DNA of 20,000 nt from the IMG/VR virus record IMGVR_UViG_2690316030_000001; one strand, 5' to 3'. Below the pieces are notes generated by a model, which was given only the letters and a program-made list of their open reading frames with translations, made no database searches and was not told the DNA's origin. Source of the DNA: an uncultured virus (IMG/VR IMGVR_UViG_2690316030_000001). Taxonomy: Duplodnaviria; Heunggongvirae; Uroviricota; Caudoviricetes. This document shows positions 3,458-20,000 of this stretch, piece by piece (position 1 is the stretch's first letter; the number at the start of each line of letters is the position of its first letter). A program made the position numbers and the translations under genes.

Positions 3458-5161
3458 ATGCCCGGAACAGACATGGACCGCTGGAAGGCGGCTATCCAGT
3501 CCGGTGATATCACCCGCATCGCCACGACAGCTCGTGCGTTGACGGAGAAGAAGTCGAAGGTAGACACCACCTTCCGTTTCACGGTCTGCGACAAGTTCTG
3601 GACACCCATGGGGTCAATCGGCAACGAACTCATGGAGGCGTCGGGGACCGATCCCCGTAATGACTGCCCTACCGCCCGGATCAAGCACAAGGGTGATAGC
3701 CCTCTCGTGCAGATGTTCATGGACTGCCGGAACACGATGGTGGGCATTGAGGTAGAGACCGCGGGGCTGCGGCAGAACTTCTACGTCAAAAAGCACGACT
3801 GGGAGTACCAAGACGGCGCTTGGACGGGAACTGTTGAGGCCCGGGGTATCTGGGACATACTCAACTATTACGTGATATGGCCGTCATGGTGGCTACCCAT
3901 ACAGGCCCAGCCGTTTTCGCACGCGATCTTCATTTGGGCGTTGCAGACCTGTGTGGAGAACATGGTCGCGGAGTGCGCGATTCGTCTCCAGTCGGGGTGG
4001 ATGGAAGCCATTAACAACGGGCTCTCGTTGAACCCCGACATCCGTGCATGGTTCGGCACCATCCTGCAAGCCCTGGACCGCGATGGCCTGTCGATTAAGA
4101 CCTTCGCGCGCATGCTACGCACGCCAACGTATGTCAAGCGAACCAACCCGTTCCTGGACACATCCCCGTTGTGTGCCAAGACCGTCCGCATGGAGACCGT
4201 TGGCTCGGTAATCAAGGATGTCACGCGAGCCTACGGTGTAGATACCCGTATGGATCTGTGGCGGCCCGGTGATGAGCAGCCCGATCAGTGGATCACCCTC
4301 GATCAACCCACATATGTCTTTTCGACTGTCGACCGCAGCCAAATCGAAGGCCCCACAAAAACTGTCCTTGATTCGGTCTTGCGGACGGTAGTGGACCTGG
4401 GTGGATCGCTCGGCGGGATCTTCAAGCCGGTCATGAAGCAAGTCCCCGGCATGGACGGGGTGTTCTACGCGCCGCTACTCGGTGTGAACTTCGAGCAACC
4501 CTACGCCTATCTTGTTGCGCCAGAATCCGGTGAGGACTCATCCATCACCTCGTGCCGGATCACCAACCATACCCCCGAGGGTTGGCAGCACATCATCGGT
4601 GGCCGTAGCCCTAAGTGGTTGAACGACTTGATGAATGCCACGTTCGCGTGGTTGATCGATTCGCTGATGATCGTGGTCGGGTTCTCCGGTATCCCATCAG
4701 ACCTGCTATCCGGCTTCCTGAACAACAGCTTCCTGGCCTTCCAGCTCATGCAGCACTACGACCGACGCGACGAAGTCGGCCCCTACCACCCAGCGGTCGA
4801 GCGCTTCTATCCCACCGCATCAGCCCCCTACAACATCGAAACAGTATTCGCGTTCATCAACGCCCTCTTTGATTCACAGGGCTACACCACCGCACAAGTC
4901 ACGTTCCGCAATGGTGACCAATACGCCTTGGGAAGAGACGTTTTCAAGGGCGGATTGATGTCGGTCGTCTACCACGGCCGAACCAAGATGGTCACCGACT
5001 ACATCGAGAACGTCATGTGGCGCATCACTCCAGATGAGCGAACCGTGGTGGCTCAACTCGGAGATGGCCGACGCGACGAAGCGCCATTGGGCAAATTCCA
5101 GCGCCTGATCACAGGGGCATTCGAAGCCATAAACGTTCTTACCCTCGCGCCACAGTCCTAA
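3458..5161 (+). CDS. Minor tail protein (probable baseplate hub/Tal, Gp37-like)
   Basis: 567-aa ORF, second gene after the tape measure. The PSWWLPIQAQP and C-terminal LGRDVFKGG/QLGDG motifs resemble mycobacteriophage hub proteins. Confidence 0.8.
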   Translation: MPGTDMDRWKAAIQSGDITRIATTARALTEKKSKVDTTFRFTVCDKFWTPMGSIGNELMEASGTDPRNDCPTARIKHKGDSPLVQMFMDCRNTMVGIEVETAGLRQNFYVKKHDWEYQDGAWTGTVEARGIWDILNYYVIWPSWWLPIQAQPFSHAIFIWALQTCVENMVAECAIRLQSGWMEAINNGLSLNPDIRAWFGTILQALDRDGLSIKTFARMLRTPTYVKRTNPFLDTSPLCAKTVRMETVGSVIKDVTRAYGVDTRMDLWRPGDEQPDQWITLDQPTYVFSTVDRSQIEGPTKTVLDSVLRTVVDLGGSLGGIFKPVMKQVPGMDGVFYAPLLGVNFEQPYAYLVAPESGEDSSITSCRITNHTPEGWQHIIGGRSPKWLNDLMNATFAWLIDSLMIVVGFSGIPSDLLSGFLNNSFLAFQLMQHYDRRDEVGPYHPAVERFYPTASAPYNIETVFAFINALFDSQGYTTAQVTFRNGDQYALGRDVFKGGLMSVVYHGRTKMVTDYIENVMWRITPDERTVVAQLGDGRRDEAPLGKFQRLITGAFEAINVLTLAPQS

Positions 5162-15565: not shown

Positions 15566-16758
15566 GTATCCGCGATAGCCTGAACAAGCGACGTCCCGTG
15601 GCCGAGGAGTCGGCGCCGGAACAGGCGAAAATGCGCGCGGAGTGGGACGGCACCGCGGGATTCATTCAGACGGGTAAGGTCTCAGATGACTTCGACGAGC
15701 AGGACTTCGAAGGCATCCTCAACGAGTTCGCCGACGAACTGCACTACGACCCAGCCAAGGTGGAGATAGCAGGTAACCCTCAGGTTGTCGTGTGGGAGAC
15801 GGGCTTCCGCAACAAGGACGGGGAGTGGGAGAAGCACAAGCACCACTCCTGGCGCTATCACCTCGCCGTCCGGCGCTGGGCTGTTGATCTTCCCGCTTTG
15901 TATGCGGAGGTCCGCAGAACCAAGTCTGTGCAGCCGAAGAAACCTACGGGTGAATCAACGGTTGTGGTGTGCTGGGCCGATATTCAGACCGGGAAGGTCG
16001 ACCATCTCGGCGGGGTCAAAGAGCTACTGCTGCGCCTTCAGGAAAAGCGGGAAAACCTGAATGCCTACCTGAAACGTTCAAGGTTCGATCGCATCATCAT
16101 CGCGGACGTGGGTGACATCGTGGAGGGCTTCGACAATGTCACGGCCCAAACCCGCACCAACGGCCTATCTCTCATGGATCAGGTCGAGGTTGCCGCCACG
16201 GAGTTCTGGAAGACCATCACCCTGTGCGCCAAGCATGCCCCCGTGGATGTTCTGTCCATCCCTTCAAATCACGGGCAGTGGCGGCGTGGAAAGGATCTAG
16301 TCGGGAAACCCACTGATGACTGGGGATTGGCCATCTCAAAACGTCTCGAATGGCACAACAACCCCGACAATCAAGGGCCGAACCTGCCGGTGGAGTTCCA
16401 CCGGCCGCCTGAGTGGTGCGAGACGCTGCAGTTCGATGTACGCGGCACAAGGTTAGGGCTGGCGCACGGTCACCAAGCCTCCGGTGCCGACAGGGTTAAG
16501 ACGTGGTGGGAGAAGATGACCCACGGTGGCGTCATGGACTGCCACGTTCTGCTCACTGGCCATTTTCATTACGCCAGCCTTCGCCCCCATGGGCGGGATC
16601 AAGTCACAGGTAAGGCGCGCTGGCACATCCAAGCCTCAACCCTGGACAACGGTTCAGCGTGGGTGATGAACAAGATGGGCGAAGACGGCGACCCGGCACT
16701 GACGGTGTTCCAGATCAATAACGACGGCTTCGACGTACAGAGCTTTGCACTCCTTTGA
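15562..16758 (+). CDS. Calcineurin-like metallophosphoesterase (Mre11/SbcD-like nuclease)
   Basis: Motifs DIQ, GDIVEG, SNHG, HGH and GHFH occur in order. The likely start is TTG 15562 (AAGGA 6 nt upstream, TTGA overlap); ATG 15556 is the alternative. Confidence 0.85.
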   Translation: MSIRDSLNKRRPVAEESAPEQAKMRAEWDGTAGFIQTGKVSDDFDEQDFEGILNEFADELHYDPAKVEIAGNPQVVVWETGFRNKDGEWEKHKHHSWRYHLAVRRWAVDLPALYAEVRRTKSVQPKKPTGESTVVVCWADIQTGKVDHLGGVKELLLRLQEKRENLNAYLKRSRFDRIIIADVGDIVEGFDNVTAQTRTNGLSLMDQVEVAATEFWKTITLCAKHAPVDVLSIPSNHGQWRRGKDLVGKPTDDWGLAISKRLEWHNNPDNQGPNLPVEFHRPPEWCETLQFDVRGTRLGLAHGHQASGADRVKTWWEKMTHGGVMDCHVLLTGHFHYASLRPHGRDQVTGKARWHIQASTLDNGSAWVMNKMGEDGDPALTVFQINNDGFDVQSFALL

Positions 16759-16783
16759 TACCCGCTGATACTTGGGAGCCGCG

Positions 16784-17008
16784 ATGAGTGAACACCCTGA
16801 CGAACTCATACAGAAGTACGTCGAAGCGATGGATCAGGAACCCGGCTGGCGGGTATCAGATTTCGTGCTCATGGTCGGATTTGAGAGAGTCCAAGCGGAC
16901 GGCACCATAGAGCACACCTACGGCGTGTATGAAGGGGAGAACCAATCGCCCTGGGCTACACACGGTTTAGTCGCAAACGGTATAGAACACCTAGAACGAA
17001 CTGAGTAG
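16784..17008 (+). CDS. Hypothetical phage protein, 74 aa
   Basis: GGGAG RBS before ATG 16784. Its last 18 nt overlap the convergent ORF 16991..17218. Confidence 0.7.
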   Translation: MSEHPDELIQKYVEAMDQEPGWRVSDFVLMVGFERVQADGTIEHTYGVYEGENQSPWATHGLVANGIEHLERTE

Positions 17009-17218
17009 CGGCACTGGTACGTAGCCATCGGGCGAATCGTCGTAGCGCTCAACAAAGACCTGAAAGCGTGGGCCGATCATGGCTTGGATGATCGGGGCAT
17101 CAGCCTCAGCTTCACCCCGCGTCCGGTATGCCCCGAAGTACGGTATGGACTCGGGAGAGCGGGCTTGATTGTGTGCAACAAACCACTTCTCGCCCGCAGT
17201 GAAGAGATCCAGAATCAC
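16991..17218 (-). CDS. Hypothetical protein, 75 aa (cargo of cassette A)
   Basis: The GTG start lies 6 nt downstream of TAAAAT in the conserved 40-bp element. There is no RBS, so it is probably leaderless. Confidence 0.62.
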   Translation of the reverse strand: MILDLFTAGEKWFVAHNQARSPESIPYFGAYRTRGEAEADAPIIQAMIGPRFQVFVERYDDSPDGYVPVPLLSSF

Positions 17219-17220
17219 AT

Positions 17221-17260
17221 CTCAATTTTACGGCGCTACAGCAGTATCCACGGGGTCTAG
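17221..17260 (-). promoter_or_regulatory. Conserved 40-bp element, copy A, with -10 hexamer TAAAAT
   Basis: Minus strand CTAGACCCCGTGGATACTGCTGTAGCGCCGTAAAATTGAG. Ungapped hand count: 30/40 identical to copy B and 24/40 to copy C. Confidence 0.75.
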
Positions 17261-17263
17261 CGG

Positions 17264-17449
17264 CTATGTCCGAGGTTCATCCGACTTTCGGGTGAACAAA
17301 AACTGGCGTCCACAACCCTCAATCGGACAAACGGCAACATCGCCCCATGCATGACGTGACGGCGGAACTTCTGTGACACGGGCAAGACTGGGCCCGCACC
17401 GATCGATTTGCCCGGCCAGATCGCATGCCGCACATTCGGGGTTGGTCAT
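17264..17449 (-). CDS. Small Cys-rich putative Zn-binding protein, 61 aa (cargo of cassette B)
   Basis: CAAC...C...H...CPIEGC. The ATG lies 7 nt downstream of GATAAT in element copy B. Confidence 0.62.
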   Translation of the reverse strand: MTNPECAACDLAGQIDRCGPSLARVTEVPPSRHAWGDVAVCPIEGCGRQFLFTRKSDEPRT

Positions 17450-17452
17450 ACC

Positions 17453-17492
17453 CTCAATTATCCGGCGTTTCAGCCGAAGTCGCGGTGTCTAG
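17453..17492 (-). promoter_or_regulatory. Conserved 40-bp element, copy B, with -10-like GATAAT
   Basis: Minus strand CTAGACACCGCGACTTCGGCTGAAACGCCGGATAATTGAG. Confidence 0.72.
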
Positions 17493-17630
17493 GCCCCGCG
17501 CGAGGAGAGCGCGCAGGGAACTAGCTCACCGTACCGCGCCCATCTATTTGATGTATCCGGCGTCGCGGACAAAATAGCCCGCCGCCTGTGTGTTTCTAAC
17601 TTATCCACAACCTAATCGGGGAGGGTTCCC

Positions 17631-17873
17631 ATGGCTTTACATCCATCTGATTGGGCGTGGATCACTATGGCTGCCGGGATCGTCGCCTACGAGATCACCT
17701 GCCCGCCCGGAGAACTACTCAGTGACGCCACTACCCGCTACGGGCAGTCTCACATGTTCCTCAGCTCAGCCGTGATCGGGGTAGTCGCCGTGCATCTGCT
17801 GCGCACCACCGGACTGCTGCGGTTCATCCCCGAACAGCTCGACCTAATCCATTTGTTGGCTTCACTGAAATGA
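17631..17873 (+). CDS. Small membrane protein, 80 aa
   Basis: GGGGAGG RBS. Two hydrophobic segments (WAWITMAAGIVAY; FLSSAVIGVVAVHLL). Confidence 0.72.
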   Translation: MALHPSDWAWITMAAGIVAYEITCPPGELLSDATTRYGQSHMFLSSAVIGVVAVHLLRTTGLLRFIPEQLDLIHLLASLK

Positions 17874-17885
17874 GAGGACACCGCT

Positions 17886-17939
17886 ATGTGCAGAGTTGAG
17901 ACCTGGAAGTGTGAGCCGTCGGTGGAGACTTCGCGGTGA
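17886..17939 (+). CDS. Putative 17-aa mini-ORF (MCRVETWKCEPSVETSR)
   Basis: GAGAGGA RBS ends 7 nt before the ATG. The TGA overlaps the next GTG (GTGA). Not in the ORF track. Confidence 0.4.
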   Translation: MCRVETWKCEPSVETSR

Positions 17940-18283
17940 ACATGGCTGATTGGCAGCTGCCGCCACTTGCTCAAGACGGCTGGGGCCTAGCGACCTGGGT
18001 AGTAATAGCTTTCGTCGTCATGTGCTTCCTCGGCATCCTGTGGACGCTGCAACACTTCGACCTCAAAGCCATCCGGCACCAAACAGAGAACTCCCACGAC
18101 ACCAACCTGCGCGACGACATCGACGAGATACGCGAGATGGTCCGCGACGGAATGGCCGACATCCGCAGCGACATCTCCGGTATCCGAAAGGACATCGGAG
18201 GACTGCGCGGAGAGCTGCGCACCGAACGCGAAGAACGCATCGAATCCGACGCCCGCATATGGCGGGGACCCTGGAAGGCTTAG
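17936..18283 (+). CDS. Single-TM coiled-coil protein, DUF2746-like (possible lysis accessory)
   Basis: GGAG RBS at 17924-17927. An N-terminal TM helix is followed by the ENSHDTNLRDDID motif and a heptad coiled coil. Confidence 0.78.
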   Translation: MNMADWQLPPLAQDGWGLATWVVIAFVVMCFLGILWTLQHFDLKAIRHQTENSHDTNLRDDIDEIREMVRDGMADIRSDISGIRKDIGGLRGELRTEREERIESDARIWRGPWKA

Positions 18284-18319
18284 ACCCCGCCGCTAGCGCT
18301 TACCGCCAATAGAATTGGG
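18280..18319 (+). promoter_or_regulatory. Conserved 40-bp element, copy C, with -10 hexamer TAGAAT
   Basis: TTAGACCCCGCCGCTAGCGCTTACCGCCAATAGAATTGGG. TAGAAT (18310-18315) lies 6 nt before ATG 18322. Confidence 0.7.
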
Positions 18320-18321
18320 GT

Positions 18322-18648
18322 ATGTTCACCGTCGCTCAGCTGCGTAAGGCAATCAATGACTTGCCAGACGACATGCTTGTGATGACCGAAGACGGCGAAT
18401 CACCAATGAGTGATGCGAACCTATACATCGCCCCGGCATGCCGCCATCGGATCGGCAGCAACAGCTGGGTATCCGAGGGGCATGAGGACCCACCCGCCAC
18501 CGAATTGGCCCGCGAGGTATTCGGCGAATGCGAGAACACTCATGTTCTACTCGTCACGCGGTTCGGAAACGATGGCCAGGACATCACCCCGGAAGAGCCT
18601 GGCGTGATCGACGTTCAGGTAGAACAGACCGCAATCGAATCTGGTTAG
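18322..18648 (+). CDS. Hypothetical acidic protein, 108 aa (cargo of cassette C)
   Basis: The N-terminal TVAQLRKAINDLPDDMLV pattern is common in small phage proteins. Probably leaderless. Confidence 0.7.
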   Translation: MFTVAQLRKAINDLPDDMLVMTEDGESPMSDANLYIAPACRHRIGSNSWVSEGHEDPPATELAREVFGECENTHVLLVTRFGNDGQDITPEEPGVIDVQVEQTAIESG

Positions 18649-18666
18649 CCCCCTCGCTTCACAGCC

Positions 18667-18716
18667 GCCCCCGGCTCCCGTGCTTCCCCCCAGCATGGTT
18701 GAGCCGGGGGCTTTTT
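18667..18716 (+). terminator. Strong intrinsic terminator between the rightward genes and the convergent integrase
   Basis: Perfect 11-bp stem GCCCCCGGCTC/GAGCCGGGGGC with an inner CCGTGCT/AGCATGG stem, followed by TTTTT. Confidence 0.85.
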
Positions 18717-18740
18717 GTGTTTCCGGTGGTTGGTTTCGAA

Positions 18741-20000
18741 TCAGCTGCCTGGCACTAGCACTGCGAGGGCGTCCATCATCGTCGAGTTCCTTGCCTGATC
18801 GGCGTGTGCGTAGATCCTCGTGACTTCCGGGGAGTTGTGTCCCAGGATCTCCATGCGAGTCTGCTCGTCCGCGCCCGCGGCGCGCAGCACTGTGGCGGTG
18901 GTGTGGCGGGTGCTATGCAGCGGCATGGTCTCGCCCTCCCCGATGATCCCGGCATCCCGCAGGAGTTTGTGCCATGCCTGGTTATCGTCATTCGGAATGA
19001 CTGGTGCGCCGTCGGCGCGGTGGAACACAAGGTTATGTGGATTGGGTCCGCAATCCTTCTCGCGGAGCTGCGCCAGTGCCAGCCGCAGCGGCTCAATCAC
19101 AGGCACCCACCGCTTCCCCGCCTCTGATTTAGGTCGGGTTAGCGCCAGGGATGCATGTAGTGGTTCGTACTCAAACTTCACAGGCAAATCCCACTTCGGT
19201 TCGGTGCAGTGCCCACCATTCTTGCGGCCACACGGCCACTTCTCGTTGACCTTTTCACCGCAGCCATGCGCGCGCTTGAGCTGCTGGAGCTGCCAAGTGA
19301 TGTCCACCGCCCCGCCTTTGAGGTCCACTCGATCCCATGTCAGCCCAAGCGATTCACCTTGCCGAGTCCCCGTAAGGAAGAGGAATAACCACCGGGTGGC
19401 CTCCATCTGATTGCGGTGTTTGACCGCGTACGCGAGCAGCTTGTGCACGTCGCCGATAGATAGCGCCGTCCGATCACCCTTGGATACTTCGGGCGCATCC
19501 ACCGGGGCGGCGACGTTCCGTTTGATAAGACCCTCTGCGACCGCATCCTTGAGGGCCTTGTGCAACACCACGTGAGCCTTTTGGGTGCGCCGCGCACCCT
19601 TGCCGATGAGCGTGTGCATGCGCCGAACATCAGCCGGCGTCAGTTCGATCAGCTTCTTATGCCCTATGGCGCTGGCGATGTTGTTGATGGTGTGCCCGTA
19701 GTCGCGGTAGGTGGTGGGGCGGATACGTTCTCTATGGACGTTCGGAAGCCAGTAGTCGAGCCACTTGGCGACCGTCATAGTCCTGTCGAGGTTGAAGCCA
19801 TCTGACGATTCGGCTTTCAATTCATCCAATCGGGCTACGAGGGTGCGGTAGTCCTTGCTGTAGACACGCTTCTGGCGCCGCTTCCCGGTCTCGTCGGGGG
19901 GCGCCTCGATCGAACCGACCCACATTCCATCGGCCCGCTGGAAGATGCTGCCCTCACCCTTGGCACGCGGCGGTCGCTTCTTCTTGGATGTGAATACCAC
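18741..20000 (-). CDS. int: Tyrosine integrase (start at or beyond the window edge)
   Basis: N-terminal RAKGEGSIFQRADG arm-binding-like segment and a SAM-like core-binding domain. Catalytic residues: R (TGTRQGE), K (PKS), HSTRH, LGH and Y (RIYAH). Confidence 0.95.
   Translation of the reverse strand: MVFTSKKKRPPRAKGEGSIFQRADGMWVGSIEAPPDETGKRRQKRVYSKDYRTLVARLDELKAESSDGFNLDRTMTVAKWLDYWLPNVHRERIRPTTYRDYGHTINNIASAIGHKKLIELTPADVRRMHTLIGKGARRTQKAHVVLHKALKDAVAEGLIKRNVAAPVDAPEVSKGDRTALSIGDVHKLLAYAVKHRNQMEATRWLFLFLTGTRQGESLGLTWDRVDLKGGAVDITWQLQQLKRAHGCGEKVNEKWPCGRKNGGHCTEPKWDLPVKFEYEPLHASLALTRPKSEAGKRWVPVIEPLRLALAQLREKDCGPNPHNLVFHRADGAPVIPNDDNQAWHKLLRDAGIIGEGETMPLHSTRHTTATVLRAAGADEQTRMEILGHNSPEVTRIYAHADQARNSTMMDALAVLVPGS

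Follow-up and report, generated by a model that had tools for sequence, protein, structure and literature searches.

Among described systems, the closest to the locus reported here are the PeSLs of the T4-like phages RB49 and phi1, elements of about 100 bp that combine a sigma70 promoter having -35 and -10 sequences with a terminator stem-loop, are active in lytic infection and have been demonstrated to give rise to mini-circles (PMC2839356, PMC4122927). Morons are extra genes, expressed in the prophage from their own promoters, which lie between genes that are adjacent in relatives (PMC6316719). The SAS and ESAS repeats of cluster K mycobacteriophages consist of a 13-bp motif resembling a ribosome-binding site with optional 17-bp inverted repeats, and those who described them suggested that such repeats could serve as recombination targets (PMC3203893). 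PafBC-dependent promoters have a -10 hexamer without a -35 element and require a GTC triplet in their -26 element (PMC8635444), and the MPMEs are units of about 440 bp with terminal inverted repeats and a conserved 123-aa ORF (PMC4351075).

The repeat described here lies in a window of 20,000 nucleotides of DNA from an uncultured virus, of which positions 16700-18800 are 100% identical to prophiGD02-2, a prophage assigned to subcluster MabA2 (PMC8092301). This repeat serves MabA prophages of Mycobacterium abscessus as a small promoter, which begins a leaderless transcript on the first base of a small gene in the lysogen, and we consider it probable that homologous recombination between its copies inserts, deletes and swaps the genes behind it. 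Three copies of 40 bp are found at 17221-17260 (copy A, minus strand), 17453-17492 (copy B, minus strand) and 18280-18319 (copy C, plus strand), with ORFs of 75, 61 and 108 aa respectively beginning 2-3 nt past them. The preliminary description had reported these elements, and both their coordinates and their pairwise identities (A/B 30/40, A/C 24/40, B/C 23/40) were confirmed. Taken alone, the A/B pair is modestly above chance, this best pair of 40-mers having 30 matches, a number reached in 1 of 15 shuffles of the region. A profile built from 69 variants in relatives, which came from a pattern scan of IMG/VR yielding 169 loci, gives copies A, B and C 43-58 bits compared with at most 6.3 bits in five shuffled genomes. 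In the 65-kb genome the profile finds nine matches, all of 43-58 bits; because two of these sit in an assembly duplication ending at N we count eight distinct copies, three in the window, four in the early region and one near the left end. With five copies elsewhere in the genome and 92 families of cargo gene in relatives, the system is not restricted to the three genes first noticed. In genome G000, one 434-bp non-phage fragment occurs twice, at 4434-5132 and 28967-29401, and in both places it ends in N, with a duplication of 374 or 901 bp behind it; these are likely scaffolding artefacts or the ends of an insertion element. The two duplications were left out of the count since their ends are at runs of N and the repeat does not border them.

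The slot region that holds these genes has lysis genes on one side and the tyrosine integrase on the other. Neither cargo A (16991..17218, minus strand; 75 aa, GTG start) nor cargo B (17264..17449, minus strand; 61 aa) has a match in Pfam or PHROGs; cargo B is a Cys-rich ORF without annotation in the prophiGD02-2 GenBank record. Cargo C (18322..18648, plus strand; 108 aa, phrog_7217) matches only families of unknown function, and its relatives in cluster K4 phages belong to ordinary operons. The final 18 nt of cargo A overlap the 3' end of the DUF7213 gene (16784..17008, plus strand), which is the conserved right flank of slot A/B, and a GC-rich hairpin at 17494..17518 (no strand assigned) forms the fixed left flank of slot B, which is common to many alleles and is one of several unrelated left flanks. 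Slot C has the DUF2746 gene (17936..18283, plus strand) on its left, whose stop codon is the TAG of copy C (18281-18283), and on its right a hairpin with a T run (18667..18716, plus strand), recognised by eye as a likely terminator although a simple terminator scan did not call this long-loop structure. The latter hairpin is kept in all resolved alleles, empty ones included, and is thus a property of the slot and not of the cargo. We examined 51 relative loci, of which 45 were resolved on the left and 37 on the right. Cargo A is present in 3/45, cargo B in 6/45 and cargo C in 16/37, so that the units are accessory, in support of the preliminary description. The left slot holds zero, one or two copies in 7, 27 and 11 of its resolved loci and the right slot in 3, 32 and 2, and since empty alleles occur at both, the cargo sits between genes that are adjacent in relatives. 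At three loci (L011, L036 and L264) a copy lacks a cargo ORF and is followed directly by the right flank of the slot; these are empty promoters remaining after cargo loss.

In the repeat, the sequence TAGAC(A/C)CCGC forms a conserved box (about -41 to -32). It is followed by a variable spacer, in which there is a weak dyad, by a TANNNT-like -10 hexamer at -12 to -7, and by the start codon at +1. In copy A the box is TAGACCCCG and the hexamer is TAAAAT (17230-17225), giving a predicted start at 17218 with the geometry of the copies whose starts are mapped. The TAG of the box often doubles as the stop codon of the upstream gene, and a copy therefore fits between two genes without a spacer. A conserved hairpin or attC-like fold was considered and rejected, as the dyad is weak (mean -2.0 kcal/mol, versus -1.6 in column shuffles) and there is no end-to-end hairpin; the best anti-diagonal pairs positions 15-20 with 27-32 but is confounded by the relatedness of the copies, and comparison with Rfam gave 0 matches. 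Two further sets of loci were picked regardless of the repeat, 44 by means of the DUF7427 gene that separates slots B and C and 49, taken with 10-kb flanks, by means of a WhiB gene. With these included, the family amounts to 200 distinct contexts, 115 variants scoring at least 25 bits, 92 cargo families of 35-227 aa (median 80 aa) and 56 left-flank groups. In 191/200 contexts a start codon lies at +2 or +3 past the repeat, a count biased upward because the first pattern required a start codon, a demand dropped for the later loci.

Strong matches are confined to MabA-like phages. A scan of 185,579 GTDB genomes returned one match, unrelated and low-scoring; blastn against 50,697 phages gave matches over 80% of the query in 17 MabA records only; a plasmid scan gave none; every metagenome match was MabA-like; and the 55 non-MabA loci of a relaxed viral scan all scored 16 bits or less. 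No account of the repeat was found in the openly accessible literature that was searched. Searches by term found no mention of it in PMC8092301 or PMC9934374, nor any mention of phage in the main text of PMC4974804, although the 2016 table of that paper holds repeat sequences. The repeat is real and apparently undescribed in the literature found.

The repeat is a leaderless promoter whose transcript starts on the ATG of the cargo gene. Expected starts were computed beforehand from prophiGD17-2 coordinates and the offset of the prophage in ATCC 19977, a relative and not the strain of the window, and 6/6 proved to be primary starts with a leader of 0 (PMC4974804 Dataset S1). Two more copies agree with mapped starts, namely the slot C copy (MAB_1815) and one before an unannotated ORF at 1756936, so that a mapped start falls exactly on the cargo ATG at 8/8 copies located in ATCC 19977, seven of them from a scan of two prophage stretches and one seen only in the table. 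MAB_1812c and MAB_1815 occupy the same slots as copies B (predicted start 17449) and C respectively, and their starts are taken from the published table; for MAB_1812c only the coordinate counts, as its sequence cell is a placeholder. These starts bear out the earlier view that the units are self-expressing. In log phase, cargo expression exceeds that of upstream neighbours 3- to 50-fold, with RPKM values of 46 for MAB_1766 versus 0.9 for upstream MAB_1765, 36 for MAB_1812c versus 1.2 and 0.6 for its neighbours, 14 for MAB_1757 versus 2.1 for MAB_1756, and 9.1 for MAB_1815 versus 3.1 for its neighbour. As WhiB and lytic genes are near zero, this expression comes from the lysogen. Raw RNA reads on locus L236 show sense depth rising across one copy from 3.5, 3.2 and 8.8 to 273, 117 and 2929 in three of four runs, with fragment ends 10-23 nt past the ATG, whereas the other run has almost no cargo transcription; relative to a nearby toxin-antitoxin locus the cargo signal in the four runs is 0.01, 0.30, 0.37 and 1.6. 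In sputum medium MAB_1766 is up by log2 3.5 and MAB_1770 by log2 1.3 (two of the six genes searched), and these differences between runs and media indicate that the promoter is condition-dependent.

This geometry is of the leaderless type seen at PafBC-dependent promoters, and some variants carry tGTCgg-N10-tANNNT in exact register; however, the GTC triplet occurs in only 6/115 variants and the conserved box at -41 lies beyond the PafBC motif described in PMC8635444. Control of the whole repeat family by PafBC was accordingly rejected as a general rule. Like the SAS and ESAS repeats as reported in PMC3203893, the element is dispersed and stands just before the start codons of non-core genes, but it lies upstream of the mapped start, outside its own transcript, and its consensus is different. 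Two host genes of ATCC 19977 have strong promoters with the upstream box of the repeat: MAB_2162 (a putative AAA ATPase, start 2175950) in the same register, and MAB_4049c (phosphoglycerate mutase, start 4095875) 4 nt further upstream. The box common to these promoters and the repeat could reflect chance or a shared host factor. Separately, five loci (L192, L202, L217, L186 and L212) have, between the DUF7427 gene and slot A, a weakly matching form of the repeat that includes a complete PafBC-type motif (TGTCGG-N10-TANNNT), and behind it a short stretch that has no clear ORF and ends in a hairpin and T run; this is possibly a DNA-damage-inducible small RNA.

How the units end bears on how they move. 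It had been proposed that each starts and ends at YTAG and is inserted there by an enzyme acting in trans. The tetranucleotides are where they were reported to be (CTAG at 16991, 17257 and 17489; TTAG at 18280 and 18645), but the far-end YTAG is not a boundary. Unit B owes its far-end YTAG to element A, of which these are the opening four letters, tandem units appearing YTAG-bounded only because the next copy begins with YTAG; in units A and C the far-end YTAG comes from the TAG stop codon of the cargo. The conserved DUF7213 gene contains the CTAG at 16991, which is kept in 38/42 alleles without cargo A; relatives remain aligned past it to about 17006, and junctions at slot A/B cluster at the DUF7213 stop codon (about 17005-17010). 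In relatives, then, indel boundaries mostly do not fall at YTAG, the junction at slot A/B included. A YTAG is found between the stop and +15 in only 16/83 terminal cargo families, in 55/71 families the point at which downstream sequence becomes shared varies from -25 to +15 relative to the stop, and TAG stops are not enriched (25/91 cargo families versus 21/66 neighbouring genes). Right-end joins are slot-specific and ragged, falling at ribosome-binding sites, ATGA overlaps or terminators. As had been noted, there are no terminal inverted repeats around the units. Like MPMEs and integron cassettes, these are small single-ORF units present or absent between relatives, but they differ from the former in having no terminal inverted repeats and no conserved ORF. 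Integron cassettes have a palindromic attC with a fixed crossover and an IntI-type integrase; here there is no attC hairpin, the crossover is variable and the cargo brings its own promoter. No IntI-type integrase was found among the 45 early proteins, out of 115 annotated, that were scanned.

Genes and flanks are extensively reassorted. There are 134 combinations of flank and cargo, 28/92 cargo families stand behind more than one flank, and one flank is found with 13 cargos, these being counts of families in related genomes and not of events. Where the same cargo has different flanks identity falls to background at position -1, and where the same flank has different cargos it falls past the ATG. 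In its variable middle the repeat tracks both cargo (18.5 of 22 positions) and flank (17.3), far above a background of 11.8, so that exchange takes place at both sides. For 9/54 copy-to-copy intervals shorter than 900 bp there is an allele that lacks exactly the first unit, and 45/54 have none; one of the nine is doubtful because of divergence and one is uninformative because its copies are identical. Unit B itself (232 bp) is among these cases, being precisely missing from some relatives (L197 compared with L199). In the informative pairs the switch from one parent to the other falls at about positions 11-12, 13-14, 17-30 and after 25. Such alleles, with their chimeric copies, fit the second option of the preliminary description, that units are shuffled by recombination between repeats, and apparent crossovers at several places inside the repeat, like the ragged right ends, tell against insertion at YTAG by an enzyme in trans.

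The repeat works in a PeSL-like way and fits the moron idea, and it does not behave as an MPME, an integron cassette, a SAS element or a PafBC promoter. As with PeSLs, a repeated and active promoter lies directly before orphan genes in hypervariable regions (PMC2839356, PMC4122927), and units are gained or lost by recombination between copies that leaves one chimeric copy, the crossover falling inside the motif (PMC2839356). The repeat differs in being 40 bp long and leaderless, in having neither a consensus -35 nor a built-in stem-loop terminator (a simple scan called no terminator at the copies), and in that it works in lysogens, the phage being a temperate mycobacteriophage; circles are only hypothetical here. 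In the manner of morons, the cargo has its own promoter, prophage expression and a place between genes adjacent in relatives. Morons usually each carry their own unrelated promoter and terminator, whereas here a single promoter family heads 92 cargo families or more. It is the slot that supplies the terminator or next gene, as seen in the slot C hairpin and in early-region cargos, where transcription reads on into the next gene.

Our best reading is thus of a PeSL-like, moron-type promoter module that is shuffled by homologous recombination together with ordinary gene-boundary mosaicism. A new gene would come into a slot through a single crossover within the repeat on its left; on its right the join, made by short homology or illegitimately, would lie near its stop or the start of the next gene, as for any gene of this mosaic region. 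Between tandem copies, a crossover would drop or add a whole unit of repeat plus gene, possibly by way of a small circle. In one tandem array at slot A/B (L181), 19 bp of the DUF7213 end lie between the two units, which is what would be expected if a resident copy had taken up a circle that carried part of the right flank. No circle joints were found in RNA reads, as distinct from phage DNA reads, over a tandem array (L236). A dedicated recombinase would not be needed, and the search for a co-occurring recombinase or HUH gene found none among 45 early proteins scanned, nor was there a RecT, Sak, Erf or Rad52-like protein among them. Forty bp at 60-75% identity is short for RecA. We infer that the repeat has a causal role in the shuffling, and predict that the cargos are moron-type genes acting in the lysogen.

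The alternative that survives best, although we think it unlikely, is that the repeat is a shared promoter only, that genes turn over by regional mosaicism at gene boundaries, and that recombination within the repeat is incidental. Conserved ordinary gene starts in 29-36 genomes have up to 11-12 unrelated upstream neighbours with little carry-over and are just as sharp, so that sharp edges need no special enzyme. Moreover, repeat-headed genes are not significantly more variable than others (median 6/37 versus 9/37 genomes, p = 0.086), and the repeat is thus not shown to raise the rate of swapping; 9/53 cargo families also occur as ordinary operon genes, 33/183 occurrences of cargo homologues are without the repeat, and a relative of cargo C sits in an operon of phage Cheetobro with no repeat. 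A promoter alone does not readily account for whole units that are precisely gained or lost with chimeric copies, for tandem arrays in 13/82 resolved slot alleles, or for slots far apart that hold one and the same cargo behind an identical copy, as in family 17 (G000 and L216). It had also been allowed that the motif might be an ordinary promoter found before core genes; a promoter it is, but 0/9 repeat-headed reference genes are core (the most widespread is in 22/37 genomes), whereas 13/57 other genes are in at least 28.

Considerably less probable is a one-ended mobility site at the left edge of the repeat, nicked by a phage or host nuclease and joined to new targets with a ragged right end, somewhat as in rolling-circle transposition. 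It would account for 58 left-flank groups that abut the repeat with a carry-over of at most 12 nt (two homologous pairs excepted), for the loss of identity at -1 in same-cargo pairs, for one clean pair of empty and filled alleles at slot A without target loss (L192 and L003), and for shared suffixes of 3-7 nt, which are somewhat above shuffles. But ordinary gene starts are equally sharp, the TAG is an in-frame stop after at least 49 open codons in 29/54 flanks, the stop in empty alleles is at the codon used in filled ones or close to it, most empty alleles show replacements rather than clean insertions, 13/115 variants have drifted to TAA, TGA or other triplets at positions 2-4, and the 45 proteins scanned include no HUH protein. 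Least probable of all, and largely refuted by the unit ends described above, is the model of cassettes bounded by YTAG at both ends and moved by a site-specific enzyme in trans, notwithstanding that 79/115 variants begin with YTAG (36/115 start otherwise), that behind the terminal TTAG of cargo C comes C-rich sequence which in some alleles reproduces the repeat start exactly over 9 nt, and that the cargo stop is the TAG of the next copy in four families, since four informative pairs retain letters of the first parent well to the right of the YTAG and at slot C what distinguishes the empty alleles is a replacement of about 30-40 nt.

The promoter module is not a new transposition chemistry. If its exchange by homologous recombination is accepted, shuffling of the PeSL type, described in lytic T4-like phages, would also occur in a temperate mycobacteriophage, whose promoters are leaderless. 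More tentatively, the repeat may define a plug-in expression library of MabA prophages, in which one promoter class, served by an activator of the -41 box that perhaps also acts on the proteasome-ATPase-like MAB_2162, would give condition-specific lysogen expression of more than 90 rotating small-protein families, the repeat being a dock for circles of repeat plus gene that pass between slots and phages. The cargo would in that case be a ready screen for prophage defence and host-modifying proteins. More generally, the repeat flags those hypothetical prophage genes that the lysogen expresses, draws attention to an unexplained box at -41 in a promoter whose activity depends on conditions, and yields at least 92 small-protein families as candidates for tests of anti-phage or host effects. 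M. abscessus strains are unpredictable in their phage susceptibility, and prophages are suspected contributors (PMC8092301, PMC9934374).

Some further observations concern the regions around the slots. To the right of slot C, three loci (L003, L007 and L008) carry polymorphic toxin-immunity-WXG100 cassettes, already described in PMC8092301, in place of the integrase side. In the early region of L236, antisense transcription reaching a depth of 172 was seen at 3540-4301 in four of four runs, and these transcripts have sharp ends near 3893-3958. Finally, in the slot 4 group (L012, L023, L027, L075 and L079) a palindrome lies about 30 nt past the cargo stop, before the next gene, which we take to match the mycobacterial SOS box consensus.
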